From Methanosarcina sp. (GTDB lineage Archaea; Halobacteriota; Methanosarcinia; Methanosarcinales; Methanosarcinaceae), in the NCBI RefSeq assembly GCF_035390745.1, contig NZ_DAOOUJ010000004.1, positions 1,375-65,374 on the forward strand: a stretch of DNA of 64,000 bases, given 5' to 3'. Position 1 is the stretch's first letter. Every line of letters begins with the position of its first letter. A program made the translations under genes and the position numbers. Below are positions 16,173 to 58,660 of this stretch, piece by piece. Below the pieces are notes generated by a model. The model was given only the letters and a program-made list of their open reading frames with translations. It did not search any database and was not told the DNA's origin.

Positions 16173-17358
16173 TTTCATCACCTGATGCATTTTCATCGCC
16201 TGGTGTTTTTTCATCGCTTGATACATTTTCATCGCTTGATGCATTTTCTTCATTCCTGGTTCTTTTCCGGTGCATATTCACGATCTGGTAAAGGGCGATA
16301 ACGATAATCAGTATAATTGCTATTCCTGTTGTGCTGAATTTTTTCTCTGTAGCTTCAAGAGGTATGTTCACTTTCATGCTTTCAGAAAACGATGTCTCTC
16401 CGTCTTCATCAACGTATTTTATTTCACTGTTAATTCCGTAGTTTTTTACAAGTGCGTCCTTGTCTGCCGAAATTTCAAAACTTGCAGTTTTCTCTTCTCC
16501 GGGGCCTATGTCCCCAAGCCTTACTATGGATTTCTCAGTGCTCAGGGGGCTCATGACTATTATCCGGGCTAAAGCGTCTTCTGCTACTTCTTCTCTTGTG
16601 TTTTTATAGGTAACATTGATGAGCCTGCTTTCTCCCTGTACAAGGCTTCCTGAGACATTGCTTACTTCAAATTCAGGTCCGCTTTTTACGGAAACGGGGA
16701 TTCTGAGAGTTTCGTTCTTTGTCTCATATACTCTTGCAAATTCCACACCCGTAACCCCGAGATTTATTGCATCCGAAGTTACGGTTTTGACATTAGCCTG
16801 GTACTGGTAACTTACAGGCAGGAGGAGCTCATAATCCCCGGCAGGTGTATCGCTGTTTATTTTGATGGTGTAACTCAGGGTTGACGTATGGCCTGTTTCA
16901 AGTTCTTCTACACTCTGAGGGTTAGATGTGGACTCGACTTCAATGTATTTTGTTTCCGATTGAAGAGTAGCTTCAATATCTTTTGCAGTTGTAACCCCCT
17001 CTTCTTCTTCCATCTCTGCCATTGCAACTGTTTCTTCAGTGGAGTCGTTTATTAGTCTCTGGTTTGCATTCAGCCTCTGAAAACCATCTATTACTCCGGT
17101 GTTTGCGATTTTTATCTTCAGATCTACTGTTTCTCCCCTTGTTAACTCGGGATCTCCTGTCACTGAAGCCTTTATAACCGGCTCTCCGTAACTCCTGTAA
17201 TAGTCTACAGTAGAGCCCTGATCCAGAATAATGAAGTTCGTTTCATCATCGTCCCCGAGGGCTGGAAGTGCAGTCACTGATACAATTAATAGAATTAATG
17301 CAAATGTAGTAACTTTCTTAATCATTTTTTGCCTTAATTTCCCGGGCACTCGTATCAT
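16165..17358 (-). CDS. COG1361 S-layer-family membrane-anchored protein (paralog)
   Basis: Signal peptide MIKKVTTFALILLIVSVTALPALG (alternative start 17325); YELLLPVSYQYQ; C-terminal TM. Confidence 0.85.
   Translation of the reverse strand: MIRVPGKLRQKMIKKVTTFALILLIVSVTALPALGDDDETNFIILDQGSTVDYYRSYGEPVIKASVTGDPELTRGETVDLKIKIANTGVIDGFQRLNANQRLINDSTEETVAMAEMEEEEGVTTAKDIEATLQSETKYIEVESTSNPQSVEELETGHTSTLSYTIKINSDTPAGDYELLLPVSYQYQANVKTVTSDAINLGVTGVEFARVYETKNETLRIPVSVKSGPEFEVSNVSGSLVQGESRLINVTYKNTREEVAEDALARIIVMSPLSTEKSIVRLGDIGPGEEKTASFEISADKDALVKNYGINSEIKYVDEDGETSFSESMKVNIPLEATEKKFSTTGIAIILIIVIALYQIVNMHRKRTRNEENASSDENVSSDEKTPGDENASGDENE
16170..16253 (-). repeat. Imperfect 18-nt tandem repeat (about 4.5 copies, GATGAAAATGCATCAAGC-like)
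   Basis: Reads DENASS/DENVSS/DEKTPG/DENASG in one frame and MKMHQA-type units in the other. Confidence 0.9.
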
Positions 17359-19715
17359 ATCTCGGCCCCCTGAATTTGTTTTTTTATTTCTGTCTGTTTT
17401 TCTGCTGCCTTATCCCCTTTTATTTTATCGCGCCAGGTATCAAGCAAGACCATCAGCGGTGGGAAGACAACAAAGCTTGCAAGGAGTGCCAGCACAATAT
17501 CAATTACCGTAACCGTACCAAAGTCGGATATCATCGGGAAAGGAGAAGCCAGCAATGCCATGAACCCGAATACTGTTGTAGCCCCTGAAGCAACGATTGC
17601 ACTTCCTATTTTGGAACTGGTCATACTGATTGCTTCCATAGGGGTCATCCCTTTACCTTTTTCTTCAAAGTAACGTTCCATCATGAGGATGGCATACTCT
17701 GACCCAACTCCCAGAATCAGAGCTCCAAGAGTTGCTGTTAAAGGAGTGTATTCGATGTTGAGCAAGCTCATTACTCCTCCTGACCAGCCGATAACTATAA
17801 CCATTGGGATCACAGGGACGAGGGCTTTCACCCAGTCTCTGTAAACAATGTAGAGCCCAATGAGCACGAGTACAAGGCCGAGGAAAGTCATTGCCACTCT
17901 CCCACTGGTAAGGGCAGTAATCACTTCTGTAAATACAACATTGTTTCCTGTGATCGTAACTGCTGTCCCTGGAGGGGCTGGCATCCACTGCATATCCTGC
18001 TCAACAATATCTGTTAGTTCCTGGATACCGGTTACTTTGATATCTGCAACCGCGTTTCCTATATTAAAGTTAAGAAGGAGCATATTTTTTCCGTACATGT
18101 AGCGGTCTTTTTGAGTTTCAGGGATCTCTGAATAAATATCTTCTATCTCCTGGCGGGTATCAGGAATTACTCCATCGTTATATTCCTTTACTAGATCTAC
18201 CATGCTTGAAGCACTGTAAATATGGCTATTGGATGCTACTTCGTGTTCGGAAAACTGATCCATCCATTTCAGGACATCCGGATTTGCAGTATCCTCAACC
18301 TTGATGATAAGGTTCAGTTCATCATTTCCGCCCATGATGTCCCCCATATGCCTGAGATCCACAAGGGCAGGCATATCCTGAGGCACAAAAGTCTGGACAT
18401 CAGTTTGAATAGGTACTGACTGATCGAGGTAGAGACCTCCAAAAGCGAGTAAACATGCAATTCCCAGCACGATAACATCGTATTTGATTGTCAGATTGGT
18501 AGTTTTCTGGAGAGCTCTTCCTATCAGACGGTCGCTTTCACTCTCTCCCTCAGTTTTTTTCTTTTTTTCCGGATTCAAAGGCTTAATCTTTTTTGCTATT
18601 TTCCTCAGGGGATTCCTGCCTGAATAGCTGTCAAATATTGAAAGCGTTACAACCCCTACAAATATTGAAGCAAAGTAACACATGATAATGCCTATCAGGA
18701 GCAGTTTCCCAAAATCCTGAATCATGGGTACTGAGGATGTAAAAAGCGAGAAAAATCCAAGTGCTGTCATTGCCAGAGCTATAAGGACAGCAGGGCCTGT
18801 GTGTTTTATGGTTTCTACTACTGCTCTTGTTTTATTCCCTTTATCCACCATTTCTTCTTCAAGTCTGTTATGAAACTGAATCGCATAGTCAATCCCTACG
18901 CCTATGAGGATTGGGAATGCAGACATAGTAACCATCGACATAGAAATTCCGACGTAACCCATAGCTCCAAAAGTGTAAACAATGCCAAGAAGAACCACAG
19001 GCAGAGGAAGAATACACCAGCGGACATGTTTGAATACAATGAGCAGTACAATAAGCATGAAAATGGCGGAAAGCCCTAAAAGAACTCCCATGCTGGAATT
19101 CATCTCGTAATTCATGGAGATGCTGAACGCCGGGTCACCTGTGACAATGATATTGTAAGAAGGTGGGAAATCCGCAAACGTGACTGCATCTTCGGTGGCG
19201 GTAAGGATATCTTGCTGTGCTGTGTCGCTGGCTGAACCTGCCATGACTACAGAAATCAGCATATGTGTATTATCAGGAATAATCTGGCTGAAAATGTCAG
19301 GATTTCCATCTATTATAGCTTTAATTTCTTCATCGGTTTCTGGAAGTTCATACCTTCCTGTCATCTGGTAGTTGATCTTTTTGATAAGGGAGGCGGGACT
19401 TGTAGTCTCGAGTACTCCATTTGTTGCTCCTACCTGATGTTCAAGCCTGTCTACAGCCTTCATCAGGTCAGCATTCCTCACATCATTGCCCTCTACCATT
19501 ACCACGATGGATTGTGTCTGGAAAATACTCTGATAAAGGTGATCATAGTCCTGGTAGAGAGGAGAGTCTTTCCCGACAAAGGTCTCCGTCCCTGATTTCA
19601 TCTCTATTAGCTGTGCTCCCTGTGTTGATATAATTATGAACAGGAAAGCTATCAGGAGTACGGAAAAACGGTTATTTTGAACAAAAAACCCAAGTTTTTC
19701 AAAAAATTCTTTAAT
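17355..19715 (-). CDS. RND-superfamily (MMPL/HAE3-type) transporter
   Basis: Two-repeat architecture with GVGIDYAIQFHNR and GVGSEYAILMMERY; frame extends 38 codons upstream of ATG 19601 to an ATT with an RBS and supplies TM1. Confidence 0.9.
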   Translation of the reverse strand: MKEFFEKLGFFVQNNRFSVLLIAFLFIIISTQGAQLIEMKSGTETFVGKDSPLYQDYDHLYQSIFQTQSIVVMVEGNDVRNADLMKAVDRLEHQVGATNGVLETTSPASLIKKINYQMTGRYELPETDEEIKAIIDGNPDIFSQIIPDNTHMLISVVMAGSASDTAQQDILTATEDAVTFADFPPSYNIIVTGDPAFSISMNYEMNSSMGVLLGLSAIFMLIVLLIVFKHVRWCILPLPVVLLGIVYTFGAMGYVGISMSMVTMSAFPILIGVGIDYAIQFHNRLEEEMVDKGNKTRAVVETIKHTGPAVLIALAMTALGFFSLFTSSVPMIQDFGKLLLIGIIMCYFASIFVGVVTLSIFDSYSGRNPLRKIAKKIKPLNPEKKKKTEGESESDRLIGRALQKTTNLTIKYDVIVLGIACLLAFGGLYLDQSVPIQTDVQTFVPQDMPALVDLRHMGDIMGGNDELNLIIKVEDTANPDVLKWMDQFSEHEVASNSHIYSASSMVDLVKEYNDGVIPDTRQEIEDIYSEIPETQKDRYMYGKNMLLLNFNIGNAVADIKVTGIQELTDIVEQDMQWMPAPPGTAVTITGNNVVFTEVITALTSGRVAMTFLGLVLVLIGLYIVYRDWVKALVPVIPMVIVIGWSGGVMSLLNIEYTPLTATLGALILGVGSEYAILMMERYFEEKGKGMTPMEAISMTSSKIGSAIVASGATTVFGFMALLASPFPMISDFGTVTVIDIVLALLASFVVFPPLMVLLDTWRDKIKGDKAAEKQTEIKKQIQGAEI

Positions 19716-19933
19716 AGTTGATTCCTCTCTGAGTTTTTAGTATGAAGTGCAATTCAGGAACCTTGATTCAAATCTATAATCGTCGATTTTTCTTCCGGGC
19801 TGGAGGTTCCCATTCCAGACCTTAATATATATTTCCCTTATATAAACTGTCTCAATAGTTATTTAATGTTCTGAACCTGTCTGGTATTAGATTTAGAAAA
19901 GATTTAAATCTATTGTTACTTTAGGGGTAACAG

Positions 19934-53078: not shown

Positions 53079-55258
53079 TTATGATACTACTATGTAGTTG
53101 TATTTTGTCACCGAAGTGCTGCCTGCCACATTGGTTACTGTCAGCTTTATCGTGTAACTTCCTGCTGCTGAATATATGTGCTTTGGATTCTGGAGTGTTG
53201 AGGTCGTTCCGTCTCCGAAACTCCAGTTCCATGCAGTAGGTGAACCTGTAGAATTGTCCTTAAAGTACACAGTCAGGGGAGCAGTTCCCGTTCTTGGAGA
53301 ACCCCAGCAGTTTATAACTGGTTTTGCTACAGTTGTTCCTGTTACTGTTATGTAGTTTGATTTTGTGTTGTATTGCTGCCTGCTGAATTACTTACTGTAA
53401 GCGCTACGGTGTAATTTCCGGCTGTCGAATAATTATGCACCGGGTTTTTAGTTGTTGAGGTCGTTCCGTCTCCGAAACTCCAGTTCCATGATGTTGGCGA
53501 ACCTGTACTTGTGTCCGAAAACAGGACGTTAAGAGGTGCACTCCCTGACGTTACATTGCTGCTGAAGCCTGCAACCGGCATTGTCGAAGAGGTTCCTGTT
53601 ACTGTTATGTAATTCGATTTTGTTGTTGTATTGTTGCCCGCTGCATTGGTTACTGTAAGTGCTACCGTGTAGTTTCCTGCTGCAGAGTACGTGTGTACAG
53701 GATTCTGGGATGTTGAAGATGTTCCGTCTCCAAAACTCCAGCTCCATGCTGTTGGCGAACCTGTACTGCTGTCCGTAAATGTCACATTCAGGGGCGAATT
53801 TCCTGAGGTTGGAGATGCCGAAAACGCAGCAACCGGCGTTTGGGAGGCATTTCCTGTAACTGTTATGTAATTCAATTTTGTTGATGTACTGCTTCCCGCG
53901 GCATTGCTTGCTGTAAGTGATATCGTGTAACTCCCTGCTGCTGTGTATGTATGCTTTGGGTTCTTCTCTGTTGAATATGTCCCGTCTCCAAAGCTCCAGT
54001 TCCACGCTGTTGGCGAACCTGTAGAATTGTCTTTAAAGGTTACAGTCAGAGGCGCAGTTCCCGATCTTGGAGATCCCCAGTAGTTTAAGACAGGTTTCGT
54101 TCCAGTAGTGGATACTGCAGTTATATAATTCGATTTTGTTGTTGTATTGTTGCCTGCAGAATTGCTTACTGTAAGCGTAACGGTATAATTCCCTGCTGTC
54201 GAATAGTTATGGGTCGGGTTTTGAGTTGTTGCACTCCCTCCGTCTCCGAAATTCCAGCTCCATGCAGTTGGTGAACCTGTACTGGTATCAGTAAACAGAA
54301 CATTAAACGGCACGTTTCCTGAGGTTACATTGCTGCTGAAGTTCGCTGTAAGAGCTGTTGGGTTTGAAGAGGTCACGAGAGGCAGGTAGTCAGAGTATAT
54401 GCTGCCTGTTATATTGGTGTATGCGGAATCGGAAATCCCATCTCCGTCTTTATCCACAGCTTTATTGGAGAAACCTGTGCCATCGGGTTTGCCCCAGAAG
54501 TTTCCTCCAATATAGGACCCTCCTGCAATGTTTTTGCCTGAAACTTTTGTAGTATTATAGGCGTTCCCTGTCCCGTTTTTGATGGTCATATTGGTATTGT
54601 TGAAGTAATTGTTGTAAATAGAGTTCCTGTCGCTGAGCCCGCAGACATACATGCCGTAAGCACTGTTTGATGTCACGGTGTTGCCTGAAAGCTTATTGTC
54701 ATCAGAAGACCCCACATGGATTCCACGGCTGTCGTTAGTAGCTGTATTCCCGGAAACAGTATTTTTGCTGGAACTCCCGAGATAAATCCCGTATACTCCA
54801 TTATTTATAGCGGTGTTTTTCGAGATCGTGCATTTACTGGAGCTTCCAAGGCGAATTCCATATCCGTTATTCATTACTTTGCTGTTTTCAATTACACAGT
54901 TACTGCATTTGTACAGATAAATTCCCGAGTAGCTGGATCCGCTTCCTGTGGCTTTTATCCCGCGAATTGTAACATTGCTTGCCTGTACTATGAGCACATC
55001 TTTTGTTGATTTAGCTTTAATTATTGTGTCATCAGGGTTTCCTGACTGTGATCTTATCGTAATGTTACCTTTGGTTATGTTGAGATTTTCGGTATATGTC
55101 CCGGCTTTTAAGGTTATCGTATCGCCCGAACTTGCATTGTTTACAGCAGCCTGTATTGAATTTCCCGGCTGGACAATTATCTCAGCCGCCGATCCAATAC
55201 CTGATATTAATAATAATAGGAAAATAGCAATTGGTAAAATGAATAGTTTATTTTTAAT
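53079..55258 (-). CDS. Cell-surface NosD beta-helix + 5 PKD protein, frameshifted near 53366 (PKD5 out of frame)
   Basis: Signal peptide, beta-helix repeats, IGGNFWGKPDG, WNFGDG PKD motifs; ACAACAACAAAA reduced by 1 nt before the last PKD; probable ATT start. Confidence 0.88.
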
Positions 55259-55622
55259 TTCTATTCCTCCATCCACTCAAGAAAGTTAGGGGTGAAATCC
55301 ATATCAAGGACTAAATTTGTATTGTTAGCAAATAATGAAAACTGCATTTCATGTGCAACGAATGTGCAGATGCAGAGCTAACTCATTTGCGCCGATTTGC
55401 CTTTAATCGGAACAAAGTTTCCGCATAAATCACTTTATCATACGGGAATATTTATAACAATATAATTATACCGATTTAAAGTATTACTCCCTCAAAAACG
55501 AAAAAAACGCATACAGATCAGTGAATTAATTGTTTAATTGTAGGAATAGTTTAATTGCAGGCAGTAATTTATCTTTTGCTTCTCGTAAAAAGAGAAATGG
55601 AATGTTGTGAAACATTCCAGTC

Positions 55623-58010
55623 TTATTTCTTTACACTTTTCAGTACTATCCCGATTACTGCCAGCGCTACGATCGCAATCAATCCCATTAAAATGATCTC
55701 GCTGTTGTCCTCATCAGATTCAGGTTCTTGAGTATCATTTCCTTCTGATTGAATCTCACCAACAGATCTCTCTTCTGCAGCGATCTGGGTACCTTCTGTA
55801 TCCACCTGCTGGACAGCCTTACCTGTTATTGCAAAGAAGGAGTATCCTGAAACATCGGCTGTAAAGTACAGATATTTGCTGTCTTCATTCAACAGGCTGG
55901 CCGGCATCTGTTCCCATGTTTCGTCACTGTACCTGTTCAGAGTTATTGAATCCTGATCTATATTATTGTCCTGCAGCCAGGACTTTTCAACCTTGAAGCA
56001 GATCACAGGATTTTCTATGTTCTCTGAGCTTGCAAACCCGCTGTTTCCTACCCAGACATTGAAGTACTTATAGACCTCTCCTTCAGTCAGGTTGGATGTG
56101 AGCGTAGATTTGCTTTTCAACTGCTCGGCAATTGTTGTGGTTTTTCCAAAGGTCTTCCTGGAATCAAAGCCCACATACACTACACAGGTTGCATTCTTCG
56201 TGAAATCAAACTGTATGGGCTTTCCATTGGTGACGAATACCTGGGAAATTTCCTTTACCTCAACGTTCTTTGCGGGCTCAGGTGAACCCCCACCGCCACC
56301 GCCGCCACCGCTGCTTCCACTGCTGTGGCTGCTTCCTTCATCATCTTCATCATCTACGTCTATCGTAGTAGTTTTTTCACTTGTGCCGTTTGCATTGATT
56401 GCAGTCAATTTAGCTGTGTAAGTACCTGCAGAAGCATACTCATATGTAAAGCTTGAAGCGTTTGAGTCTTCAATCCCATCGCCGTTGACATCCCAGCTTA
56501 TAGATGCTGCATTTTGCGAAAGGTCGGTAAAGGTAACTGATAGTGGAGCATAGCCGCCGGTAGCACTGGTGCTGAAGTCTGCTACAGGAAAGCCTTCTTT
56601 TTCTGCTTCCAGAACTTTTATGCCAAGGGTTTTTGAAGCCGTACCGTTTTCATTGCTTACTGTCAGGTTAACGTTATAGTCTCCGGGATTTTCATAAACA
56701 TGAACTGGATTCTGGTCTGTAGAAGAAGAACTATCACCAAAGTCCCAGTTCCATGAAACTGCTTTTTGTGAAAGGTCCGTAAACTGGATTGCAAGTGGGG
56801 CAGATCCCTGAGTGGCATTGGTGCCGAAGTCTGCCACAGGCAGCTCAGAATTCTGTAAGACCGTTATTGTACCAGTTTTTGAAGTCTCACCGTTTGCATT
56901 GTTTACTTTTAACGTTACATTGTAATTCCCTGCTGAGGTATACGTGTGTATGGGGGTCTTGTCCTGTGAATTAGTTCCATCTCCGAAATCCCAGTTCCAC
57001 GAAGTGGGAGTTCCTGTGCTTTTATCAGTAAACAGGACGTCAAGAGGTGCATTTCCCGAAGTAATGCTGCTGCTGAAGTCCGCAACCGGGATTGTGGGCG
57101 CAGCCGAGTTTGAAGACGACACAAGAGGCAGGTAATCCTTATACGAGCTGTCACCCGGCAGGCTGTATGCTGAATCGGCAATCCCGTCTCCATCACTATC
57201 CACTGCCGTATCGGAAAATCCCTTGCCATCAGGTTTTCCCCAGTAGTTTCCGCCGATATAAGAGCCGCCAATTATATTTGTGCCTGCGGTTTTTGTAATA
57301 TTATAGGAGTTTCCAGATCCTTTTTTTACGGTCACATCGGTGTTATTGAAATAGTTGTTGTACACGGTATTATAGTCGCAAAGGCTGCATTCATAGAACC
57401 CTAAATAATTATTATAAGTTACTTTGTTACCTGAAATTGTATTGTAGTCAGCGGAACCCAGATAGATACCACGGCTGCTATTATAAACCGTATTATCAGA
57501 AATGGTATTGTTTCTGGAGCTCCCTACCTCAATTCCGTATACTCCGTTATCCATGACTGTGTTTTTCGAGACAGAGCACTTACTGGAACTTGTGAGGCGA
57601 ATTCCATATCCGTTATTCGTAAGTTTATTATTTTCAAGTGTGCAGTCACTGCATTTGTAAAGGTAAATCCCCGAATAGCTGGATCCGCTTCCTGTGGCTT
57701 TGATCCCTCTAATCGCAACATTATTTGCTTCGTACACCAGGAGTACATTTGCTGCTGATCTTTTAGCATGAATTATCGTATCATCAGGATTTCCAGACTC
57801 TGACCTGATTGTAAGATTACCTTTGGTTATGTTGACATTTTCGATATAAGTACCTGGTTTTATGATTATTTCATCATATGGACTTGCACTGTCAACAGCA
57901 GTCTGTATCGAATTTCCCGGCTCGACAGTTATCTCGGCCGCTGATCCGATAAATGAAATTAATAATAATAGGAAAATAGCAATTGGTAAAATGAATAGTT
58001 TATTTTTAAT
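55623..58010 (-). CDS. Cell-surface NosD beta-helix + 3 PKD + PGF-pre-PGF protein with C-terminal TM
   Basis: N-terminal 300 aa paralogous to the neighbour; Gly-rich linker then SPEPAKNVEVKEISQ; TM + KSVKK; probable ATT start. Confidence 0.9.
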   Translation of the reverse strand: MKNKLFILPIAIFLLLLISFIGSAAEITVEPGNSIQTAVDSASPYDEIIIKPGTYIENVNITKGNLTIRSESGNPDDTIIHAKRSAANVLLVYEANNVAIRGIKATGSGSSYSGIYLYKCSDCTLENNKLTNNGYGIRLTSSSKCSVSKNTVMDNGVYGIEVGSSRNNTISDNTVYNSSRGIYLGSADYNTISGNKVTYNNYLGFYECSLCDYNTVYNNYFNNTDVTVKKGSGNSYNITKTAGTNIIGGSYIGGNYWGKPDGKGFSDTAVDSDGDGIADSAYSLPGDSSYKDYLPLVSSSNSAAPTIPVADFSSSITSGNAPLDVLFTDKSTGTPTSWNWDFGDGTNSQDKTPIHTYTSAGNYNVTLKVNNANGETSKTGTITVLQNSELPVADFGTNATQGSAPLAIQFTDLSQKAVSWNWDFGDSSSSTDQNPVHVYENPGDYNVNLTVSNENGTASKTLGIKVLEAEKEGFPVADFSTSATGGYAPLSVTFTDLSQNAASISWDVNGDGIEDSNASSFTYEYASAGTYTAKLTAINANGTSEKTTTIDVDDEDDEGSSHSSGSSGGGGGGGGSPEPAKNVEVKEISQVFVTNGKPIQFDFTKNATCVVYVGFDSRKTFGKTTTIAEQLKSKSTLTSNLTEGEVYKYFNVWVGNSGFASSENIENPVICFKVEKSWLQDNNIDQDSITLNRYSDETWEQMPASLLNEDSKYLYFTADVSGYSFFAITGKAVQQVDTEGTQIAAEERSVGEIQSEGNDTQEPESDEDNSEIILMGLIAIVALAVIGIVLKSVKK

Positions 58011-58660
58011 TTCCAATTCCTCCATCCACTTACAAAATTTAGGGGTAAAATCTGTGTTCTGGATGAATTGATTTATTAGCAATCAATCAAACTCACTCAC
58101 AGCGCTAACAATCTACAGGTTCAGTTATTAGTTCCAATAACTGATTTTTTATATCCAGATTTACACCTCATACTCCATACTTTAACCTGAGTGGAAGACA
58201 TATTATACAATATAAATATGCTGATTTAGATTAATACTTTTTAATAGAAATAAAAACCTGATTTTCGCAGCCTAATGGAGCAATGCTTTTAAAGTCAAAA
58301 ACAGTCTGTTTGTTCTTGTTTAATTACTCAGTTTTTTTATACTTCCAGTCTTCTGTCCAAGAATACTCCTTTTTTGGTACTTCATTTTTTAGTTATTTGC
58401 CAGAAACAATCCCGAAATTATTATTATATTATAGGAAAGACAATAATAAATCCTGAAAGGTTACTACAAAAGGACTATAATGTCGTATAATGAATTATAT
58501 TGGGAACAATGAGAGTTATGTTTGGACTTGAGGTTCCATAATTACAGAAATATGTTAAAACTAATATTATAGTAACTTTAAGCGGAAAGTATAACAGAGA
58601 ATAGATAACATTATTCTCCATATAAAAAAATGATTCCTTACACATCGGGGGATAAATTAG

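Follow-up and report, generated by a model that had tools for sequence, protein, structure and literature searches.

Probable AUU initiation of two paralogous surface-protein genes of Methanosarcina, and near-cognate start codons in the genus

Introduction

Which codon starts translation of two paralogous Methanosarcina genes in which a good Shine-Dalgarno (SD) sequence is followed, at the proper distance, by ATT, while the in-frame GTG, ATG and TTG codons lie upstream of the SD, on it or just 2 nt behind it? The question is raised by a stretch of 64,000 nucleotides (nt) of Methanosarcina sp. DNA (assembly GCF_035390745.1, contig NZ_DAOOUJ010000004.1, positions 1,375 to 65,374; hereafter the window). 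The two genes, referred to below as gene 1 and gene 2, lie on the minus strand and encode proteins with NosD beta-helix and PKD domains. The genome is a 3.38-Mb draft of 142 contigs with 42% G+C, apparently a metagenome bin.

An initial annotation of the window had suggested conserved AUU initiation for this pair. Comparison with related genomes makes it very probable that both genes encode exported Methanosarcina surface proteins starting at AUU (55258..55256 and 58010..58008) and not at the upstream GTG, ATG or TTG. At least about 20 genes of this genome, some of them essential and conserved family-wide, appear to use near-cognate starts. Features are collected in Table 1.

Table 1. Features of the two genes, of the RND transporter gene and of other genes with proposed near-cognate starts in the same genome
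Feature	Position	Strand	Remarks
Gene 1, read from ATT	53348..55258	minus	signal peptide, NosD/right-handed beta-helix, 4 PKD domains (Pfam NosD, Beta_helix, PKD; TIGR03804)
Gene 2, read from ATT	55623..58010	minus	signal peptide, NosD beta-helix, 3 PKD domains, PGF-pre-PGF, C-terminal membrane anchor
Proposed initiation codon ATT, gene 1	55258..55256	minus	7 nt after GGAGG
Proposed initiation codon ATT, gene 2	58010..58008	minus	8 nt after GGAGG; identical in RNA-run contig 57958-58158
SD GGAGG, gene 1	55270..55266	minus	columns invariant in 15-leader alignment
SD GGAGG, gene 2	58023..58019	minus	columns invariant in 15-leader alignment
Rival start GTG, gene 1	55276..55274	minus	in frame, 5' of SD; gene callers' choice; frame not kept in orthologues
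Rival start ATG, gene 2	58025..58023	minus	in frame, overlaps SD
Second in-frame rival TTG, gene 2	58016..58014	minus	just 2 nt after GGAGG
Predicted signal peptide, gene 1 (KNKLFILPIAIFLLLLISGIGSAA)	55184..55255	minus	Lys-rich n-region, hydrophobic core, GSAA cleavage-type motif; conserved at the protein level in all loci
TATA-like box TATAATTATATTG, gene 1	55470..55458	minus	conserved
TATA-like box ATATTTATATTG, gene 2	58219..58208	minus	conserved
5' untranslated region (UTR), gene 1, at least about 158 nt	55259..55416	minus	metatranscriptome contig 55266-55416
5' UTR, gene 2, at least about 148 nt	58011..58158	minus	RNA-run contig ends at 58158
HAE3-family RND transporter gene, read from ATT	17355..19715	minus	ATT 19715..19713, GAGG 19727..19724
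Cytoplasmic genes, proposed ATT start: frhA, hflX, mtbC (probably)			NCBIfam profiles/genus checks
mtbC, ATT (probably)	C89:4976		NCBIfam profile begins at or near the proposed start
Cytoplasmic genes, proposed ATA start: radB, cbiG, GT2 glycosyltransferase	C19:29026 (radB); C66 (cbiG); C2 (GT2)		NCBIfam profiles
Cytoplasmic genes, proposed ATC start: hps-type gene, rpoB''	C12:11995 (hps-type)		NCBIfam profiles
Cytoplasmic genes, proposed CTG start: ksgA, ravA-like ATPase	C8 (ravA-like)		NCBIfam profiles
ACG candidates: surface proteins (C3, C17), DUF362-like (C90)	C3; C17; C90:3296		sequence reading only

The two genes and their leaders

The leader of gene 1 reads GTGGATGGAGGAATAGAA-ATT-AAAAATAAA (in a longer view, ...CTTGA GTG G ATG GAGG AATAGAA ATT AAA AAT AAA...) and that of gene 2 GTGGATGGAGGAATTGGAA-ATT-AAAAATAAA (...GTAA GTG G ATG GAGG AATTGGAA ATT AAA AAT AAA...). 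The initial annotation had placed ATT behind GGAGG in both paralogs, and this minus-strand layout is confirmed, with spacers of 7 and 8 nt. It was also right that the upstream GTG is in frame in gene 1 only and the upstream ATG in gene 2 only, and the argument drawn from this shift of frame stands up in the 30 genus-wide leaders described below. Other details had to be amended. The leaders had been said to differ by one base; in fact their spacers differ by one substitution and a 1-nt indel. Of the two upstream codons said to overlap GGAGG only the ATG does so, the GTG being situated 3 nt upstream of it. ATT had been called the only start that the pair shares in frame at 7-8 nt from the SD; its position is indeed conserved. 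An in-frame TTG, 2 nt after GGAGG, is present in gene 2 as well.

When gene 1 is opened at the GTG (55276), its frame runs on the minus strand to the stop at 53348. Read from ATT, both proteins begin with MKNKLFILPIAIFLLLLIS... and have the form M-KNKLFILPIAIFLLLLIS-(G/F)IGSAAE, which is a typical predicted signal peptide. The motif is kept in the family as a K/R n-region, about 15 hydrophobic residues and G-x-G-[ST]-A-A, as seen by inspection and with a simple criterion of hydrophobicity. The remainder of the proteins matches Pfam NosD (E=6e-44 and 2e-43 for genes 1 and 2) and PKD_4 (E=4e-82 and 2e-47), and TIGR03804 repeats are matched too. Gene 2 also has a PGF-pre-PGF domain (TIGR04213, E=1e-59, residues 602-754), followed by a hydrophobic C-terminal helix; gene 1 lacks the domain. 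Nearly all database homologues of the two genes come from Methanosarcina.

The 3' end of gene 1 (53082-53370, minus strand) deserves a remark. A 93%-identical protein of 732 amino acids (P0003) can be aligned with residues 1-634 without a change of frame, whereas its final 95 residues, a fifth PKD domain, are 99% identical to a translation in another frame. An extra C stands behind 53366 in another DNA run. A 1-nt frameshift near that position has probably shortened gene 1.

Counted as a bare pattern, GGAGG-N5-10-ATTAAA has no statistical significance. Two copies are present where 0.39 would be expected, at least two are found in 6 of 100 shuffles, and both copies belong to the paralogs. The weight of the ATT case comes from comparison with other genomes.

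Homologous leaders in the genus

The leader was searched by DNA similarity in 60 related genomes. It was found within the same genus only, in 35 genomes, and 30 loci were read. The conservation check that the initial annotation had proposed supports ATT as the start: the codon located 6-8 nt after GGAGG (GGGGG in two loci) is ATT in 12 leaders and ATA in 18, that is, in 30/30. In every locus this ATH codon (here ATT or ATA) opens a frame that first encodes a Lys/Arg/Asn-rich n-region and a hydrophobic core and then stays open for hundreds of codons, in some cases to the end of the locus.

The sequence 5' of the ATH codon behaves differently. An in-frame canonical codon there may be GTG at -6, ATG at -5 or -6, or TTG at -2, or there may be none. 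Because the spacer between SD and ATH is 6, 7 or 8 nt long, the upstream canonical codon drifts in and out of frame. Moreover, the T of ATGGAGG is replaced by C in most orthologous leaders (GGACGGAGG). The inconsistency of these codons argues that the stretch is free of reading-frame constraint.

Certain loci are especially informative. Six of them (L003, L006, L008, L009, L027 and L029) have no ATG, GTG or TTG from the upstream stop to codon 35. In L010, L011 and L023 the sole canonical codon is an ATG at codon 21, within the cleavage motif. A stop codon (TGA, TAA or TAG) immediately precedes ATA in L010, L011, L026, L028 and L029. In loci without a canonical codon, or with a stop just before ATA, a non-canonical start is unavoidable if the predicted signal peptide is made.

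Relatives with a canonical codon at the homologous position point the same way. A metagenome homologue (L031) has AAGGAG, 8 nt, and ATG AAT AAG CTA ACA (MNKLTT) in the place where relatives have ATA AAT AAA TTA ACC, and a paralog in the genome under study (C18:6849-7271) has GGAGG, 6 nt and ATG. A protein-based census, independent of leader similarity, covered 19 genes of the close subfamily in four complete genomes of the genus; the codon was ATA in 10, ATT in 4, ATG in 3 and TTG in 2. In all, ATG or TTG takes the ATH position in L031, C18:6849, L194, L198, L199, L212 and L214, and the sister subfamilies have ATG, TTG, GTG and once CTG there. The close subfamily of the present genome comprises four genes with ATT, four or five with ATA and one with ATG. 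Near-cognate codons thus predominate in this subfamily of surface proteins, and ATG also occurs. The start is fixed at the ATT/ATA position by three kinds of loci taken together: those devoid of a canonical start, those with a stop directly before ATA, and the relatives with ATG or TTG in that place.

In database records the N-termini of about 90 homologues are scattered and none of them lies at the ATH codon. Some calls are placed upstream (MDGGIEIKNK, MEELEIKNK), some have long spurious extensions, and others lie inside or after the signal peptide (MLILLGIF, MISGIG, MAAEIIVQ), which several of them lack completely. Scatter of this kind is the signature of a start codon that gene callers are unable to use. 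The statement that annotation pipelines miss these starts is therefore borne out for the surface proteins; it holds only in part for the RND transporter discussed below, which some NCBI records do begin at ATT.

Promoters and transcripts

About 200 nt before the start, the leaders of the family all have a TATA-like box (consensus ...CAGTATATTTATATTG), and several blocks of the leader are conserved as well. In the window these elements span 55259-55475 and 58011-58226. Contigs of a run labelled metatranscriptomic cover both genes. They reach 55416 for gene 1 and 58158 for gene 2 and end there, whereas those of DNA runs go on. These ends agree with 5' UTRs of at least about 150 nt, so that the mRNAs would be leadered and SD-dependent, and leaderless initiation is excluded. 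The transcript evidence is equally compatible with ATT and with the nearby GTG or ATG.

At the start region of gene 2, independent DNA runs and the metatranscriptome contig have the same letters as the window. The RNA-run contig keeps ATT at 58010..58008, its sole difference being 58083 T>C. Editing of AUU to AUG in the RNA was rejected on the strength of this contig.

The leaders were also inspected for RNA structure. A scan of leaders and genes with Rfam gave only matches at chance level (E about 0.8). A conserved pyrimidine tract, CUUUCUU, lies about 10 nt before the SD, and RNAalifold on 15 leaders pairs it weakly (6 bp, -0.68 kcal/mol) with the GAGGAA of the SD, with no compensatory changes. 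This pairing is no evidence for a regulatory structure.

Near-cognate starts in other genes

The RND transporter gene of the window, which the initial annotation had cited as a third example, fits the pattern with GAGG, 8 nt and ATT. A TAA lies 8 codons upstream of the ATT, and the next ATG, GTG or TTG is found 38 codons downstream, past the first membrane helix. Counted from ATT, residue 14 aligns with position 2 of the TIGR00921 profile. In the 29 loci compared within the genus, with paralogs at 70% identity among them, this ATT never changes, whereas the codons around it do. Four NCBI records (P0095, P0096, P0100 and P0102) give the protein from ATT (MK..FEKLGFF, 783-786 amino acids); older and Prodigal-type calls begin at the ATG at +30 or +38.

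The whole genome was screened for the combination of SD, start-like codon and signal peptide, which yielded 355 open reading frames (ORFs). A canonical codon occupies the SD window in 125 of them, and 30 have no canonical codon nearby. About a dozen of these 30 are convincing, and all have ATA, ATT, ATC or ACG at 7-9 nt (in one case 5 nt) from the SD. One further pair touches on this subject. C44:4260 and C44:6038, which lie next to each other, are paralogs and encode membrane proteins or lipoproteins (IKKNQQ...). In one of them a TTG stands immediately in front of ATT; the other has ATC only, at 7 nt from GGAGG, and contains no canonical codon within 25 codons.

Genes for cytoplasmic proteins are also concerned. 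Here, NCBIfam profiles align from their position 1-7 (22 of 498 for the ravA-like ATPase) within 1-16 residues of the proposed start. A canonical codon is first met deep within conserved sequence, and the near-cognate codon stands behind GGAGG or GAGG. The alpha subunit of F420-hydrogenase, frhA (L062, C73:7546, minus strand; L063-L091), begins with TTG in 25 genomes and with ATG in a single one, whereas three, the present one included, have ATT. Here a canonical start has been exchanged naturally for a near-cognate one. In the gene for the GTPase HflX (L092, C13:40639; L093-L121), ATT is kept 7 nt after GAGG in 30/30 loci read, some of them by eye where indels shifted the automatic anchor. 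The hflX gene of this genome has no canonical start for 73 codons; relatives have ATG, GTG, ATA or GTA two codons upstream, at an impossible SD spacing of 1 nt.

Two essential genes also keep a near-cognate codon throughout the genus. In all 30 Methanosarcina genomes the rpoB'' gene of RNA polymerase (L122, C6:63470-63475; L123-L151) has ATC ATC behind AGAGGGTG, and its first canonical codon comes no earlier than +19. The predicted N-terminus of RpoB'' is (M)IALESSILSQAYFTR or (M)ALESSILSQAYFTR. In the wider order (L218-L229), five other genera of the family have AT(C/A), and the other families have ATG, GTG or TTG one codon downstream. The gene for the 16S rRNA dimethyltransferase, ksgA/rsmA (L152, C11:53706; L153-L181), has CTG in each of the 30 genomes of the genus; it follows GGAGG(T/C) at 7-9 nt, in most cases 7. 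In this genome its first canonical codon occurs 130 codons downstream. Near-cognate starts thus appear to be stably used by the genus and, for rpoB'', by the family. Given such use, the AUU reading of genes 1 and 2 would be unexceptional for this organism.

The initial annotation had attached importance to ATTAAA as a recurrent initiation context. Recurrence is real and broader than had been claimed, but ATTAAA is not what determines it, for ATA, ATC, CTG and probably ACG also serve. A special role of ATTAAA was rejected: frhA has ATT TCG, hflX has ATT CCA, and the surface-protein family mainly has ATA AAT or ATA AAA. The A-rich second codon just encodes the Lys/Asn/Arg n-region. Codon-usage scoring of N-terminal extensions, applied to all 61 codons, was confounded by neighbouring codons and internal SD-like sites and was not used for any count.

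Alternative explanations

Gene callers favour another solution, in which gene 1 starts at GTG 55276 and gene 2 at ATG 58025 or TTG 58016, the proteins carry acidic extensions (MDGGIEI-, MEELEI- or MEI-) and ATT is an ordinary isoleucine codon. These codons are in frame, the callers do pick them (MDGGIEIKNK..., MEELEIKNK...), and some orthologues have an in-frame GTG or ATG there as well. Their placement is nevertheless poor. The GTG lies 5' of the only SD, the ATG overlaps it, the TTG follows it by 2 nt, and no other SD-like sequence precedes any of them. Nor is their frame conserved, a 1-nt spacer indel separating even the two paralogs; most leaders have C in place of the T of the ATG, and the six orthologues without a canonical codon and the several with a stop directly before ATA have no place for such a start. 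It would also put two or three acidic residues on an n-region otherwise rich in Lys and Arg. We consider upstream initiation quite improbable as the explanation of these genes. Still less probable is the view that they are decaying or untranslated copies in which ATT is a functionless remnant of ATG. It could draw on the frameshift near the 3' end of gene 1 relative to the 93%-identical database protein, and on the size and fast turnover of such surface families (14-25 NosD-domain matches per genome). Yet frames of several hundred codons with intact domains follow ATH in 30/30 loci, the SD, its spacing, the signal peptide, the promoter and the leader blocks are conserved, both genes appear in the metatranscriptome run, and the essential genes rpoB'' and ksgA have the same kind of start. 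As for an assembly or sequencing error at ATT, or its conversion to AUG in the RNA, the draft state of the 142-contig assembly, apparently a bin, and the indel near 53366 that differs from another run might be invoked. The agreement of independent DNA-run and RNA-labelled contigs with the window at the gene 2 start (58083 T>C excepted), and the presence of ATT or ATA in 30 independently assembled genomes, complete ones included, reduce the chance of this to a negligible one.

Several points weigh against initiation at AUU itself. It is deduced from sequence comparison, and cleavage of the signal peptides hides the N-termini of both proteins from proteomics. Reporter work in Haloferax is said to have found AUG, GUG and UUG alone to be efficient. 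The 30 leaders are homologous and hence do not represent 30 independent events; their retrieval by DNA similarity to an ATT-containing query introduces a minor ascertainment bias, which the protein-based census avoids. Genes 1 and 2 do carry in-frame canonical codons upstream (GTG in one, ATG and TTG in the other), and some initiation may occur there. The RNA-run evidence consists of contigs from a run that bears the label metatranscriptomic. Finally, in a genome-wide test for codon enrichment behind strong SDs at ORF starts, ATG, TTG and GTG stand out and ATT does not. This test is too blunt, because near-cognate starts are rare relative to about 6,400 stop-to-stop ORFs.

Proposed mode of initiation

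If AUU is the start, the following scheme may be envisaged. Transcription of each gene begins at a conserved TATA-box promoter of its own and gives a 5' UTR of about 150-175 nt. The GGAGG near the 3' end of the leader would pair with the 3' end of 16S rRNA and thereby set the codon 7-8 nt downstream into the P site. There, initiator Met-tRNA would read AUU (AUA in most relatives) despite the third-position mismatch, so that the protein would begin with Met-Lys-Asn-Lys and continue into a Sec-type signal peptide. The weak near-cognate start would lower the initiation rate; translation of the family would probably be attenuated and possibly tunable. Attenuated output is expected by analogy with bacterial AUU and AUA starts, which in S. 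aureus reporters reach about 10-30% of AUG (PMC13009471). Initiation would also be made sensitive to the fidelity factor aIF1. In vitro, aIF1 destabilises non-AUG complexes (PMC6237735), and since it discriminates against such codons, output may depend on its activity. AUA and AUU outnumber AUG in a fast-evolving family, and AUC, CUG and AUU are invariant in rpoB'', ksgA and the RND gene, respectively. This suggests that the weak codon is maintained and not merely tolerated.

The aIF1/SUI1 gene of this genome (L182, C5:90577-90870, minus strand) starts with ATG, and the distance from its GGAGG to this codon, 12 nt, is unusually long. Self-regulation of the infC type, as known for bacterial IF3, was rejected because of this ATG start.

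Relation to known systems

AUU and AUA initiation is already well known in bacteria, and the Methanosarcina cases extend a known kind of start. The closest analogue is ebpA of Enterococcus faecalis, which encodes a pilus tip protein. Its rare ATT start attenuates expression and the annotation at first truncated the protein (Montealegre et al. 2015; PMC4447247). Like the present genes, ebpA has an exported surface protein as its product, and the part encoding the signal peptide precedes the ATG of the annotation. However, ebpA is a single bacterial gene with a start shown by experiment, whereas here an archaeal paralog family is concerned, with ATT/ATA conserved genus-wide and known from sequence comparison.

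Initiation factor gene infC (IF3) starts with AUU in E. coli and AUA in S. aureus; these starts are conserved, served by an SD and give a lower initiation rate (PMC13009471). E. coli pcnB also has AUU (Binns and Masters 2002, as cited in PMC13009471). The Methanosarcina genes share with infC and pcnB a near-cognate AUH codon served by an SD; in the bacterial genes it is the initiator tRNA that decodes this codon. In contrast to infC, which is autoregulated, IF3 itself rejecting AUU, genes 1 and 2 do not encode translation factors, and no self-loop is visible in the ATG-started aIF1 gene. In S. aureus, cvfC1 (AUU), ccpN (AUA) and citZ (AUA) each follow an extended SD, and their reporters reach about 10-30% of AUG (PMC13009471). 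Four S. aureus genes were mapped, by ribosome profiling (Ribo-seq) with retapamulin, while at least about 20 archaeal genes are proposed here by comparison. The SD also differs, being a 5-nt GGAGG core here and an extended motif in S. aureus.

ATT, ATC, ATA and CTG are listed as possible initiators for bacteria and archaea in NCBI translation table 11. Table 11 and the gene calls of the Prokaryotic Genome Annotation Pipeline (PGAP) are a bookkeeping provision and do not describe a phenomenon. Some NCBI records give the RND protein from ATT, but there is no ATH start among the NosD/PKD homologues seen. Our literature search found no paper describing ATT, ATA, ATC or CTG starts in Methanosarcina. 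A Ribo-seq study of M. mazei reported ATG, GTG, TTG and a few CTG starts, for small ORFs only, and does not mention ATT or ATA starts (PMC11456600).

Significance

Initiation at codons outside the set AUG, GUG and UUG is commonly regarded as a rare curiosity, and in archaea such codons are ignored by most gene finders. Because of this, many exported surface proteins of Methanosarcina would have wrong N-termini in the databases, and entries that lack a signal peptide mislead work on localisation and on the surface proteome. Likewise, a caller that accepts ATG, GTG and TTG alone would shorten rpoB'', ksgA, radB and hflX, there being no such codon before their conserved N-termini. The scale (at least about 20 genes, some of them essential) and the consequences for annotation add to the interest of these starts.

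The AUA/AUU preference of the surface-protein family and the invariant AUC and CUG starts of housekeeping genes may serve as test cases for archaeal initiation, namely for the parts played by the SD, aIF1 and the initiator tRNA (Met-tRNAi). They also allow one to ask whether weak starts act as a regulatory device, in a genus that is a main model methanogen and genetically tractable. A far-reaching proposal, which we regard as doubtful at present, is that dozens of genes of the Methanosarcinaceae (the surface family and those for RNA polymerase B'', KsgA, HflX, RadB and F420-hydrogenase) are kept on AUU, AUA, AUC, CUG or ACG behind strong SDs as a translational regulon that tracks initiation fidelity, through the level of aIF1 or the state of the ribosome. 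Such a regulon, if true, would correspond, on the scale of the whole cell, to the IF3-infC circuit of bacteria and would have been conserved for as long as the family has existed.

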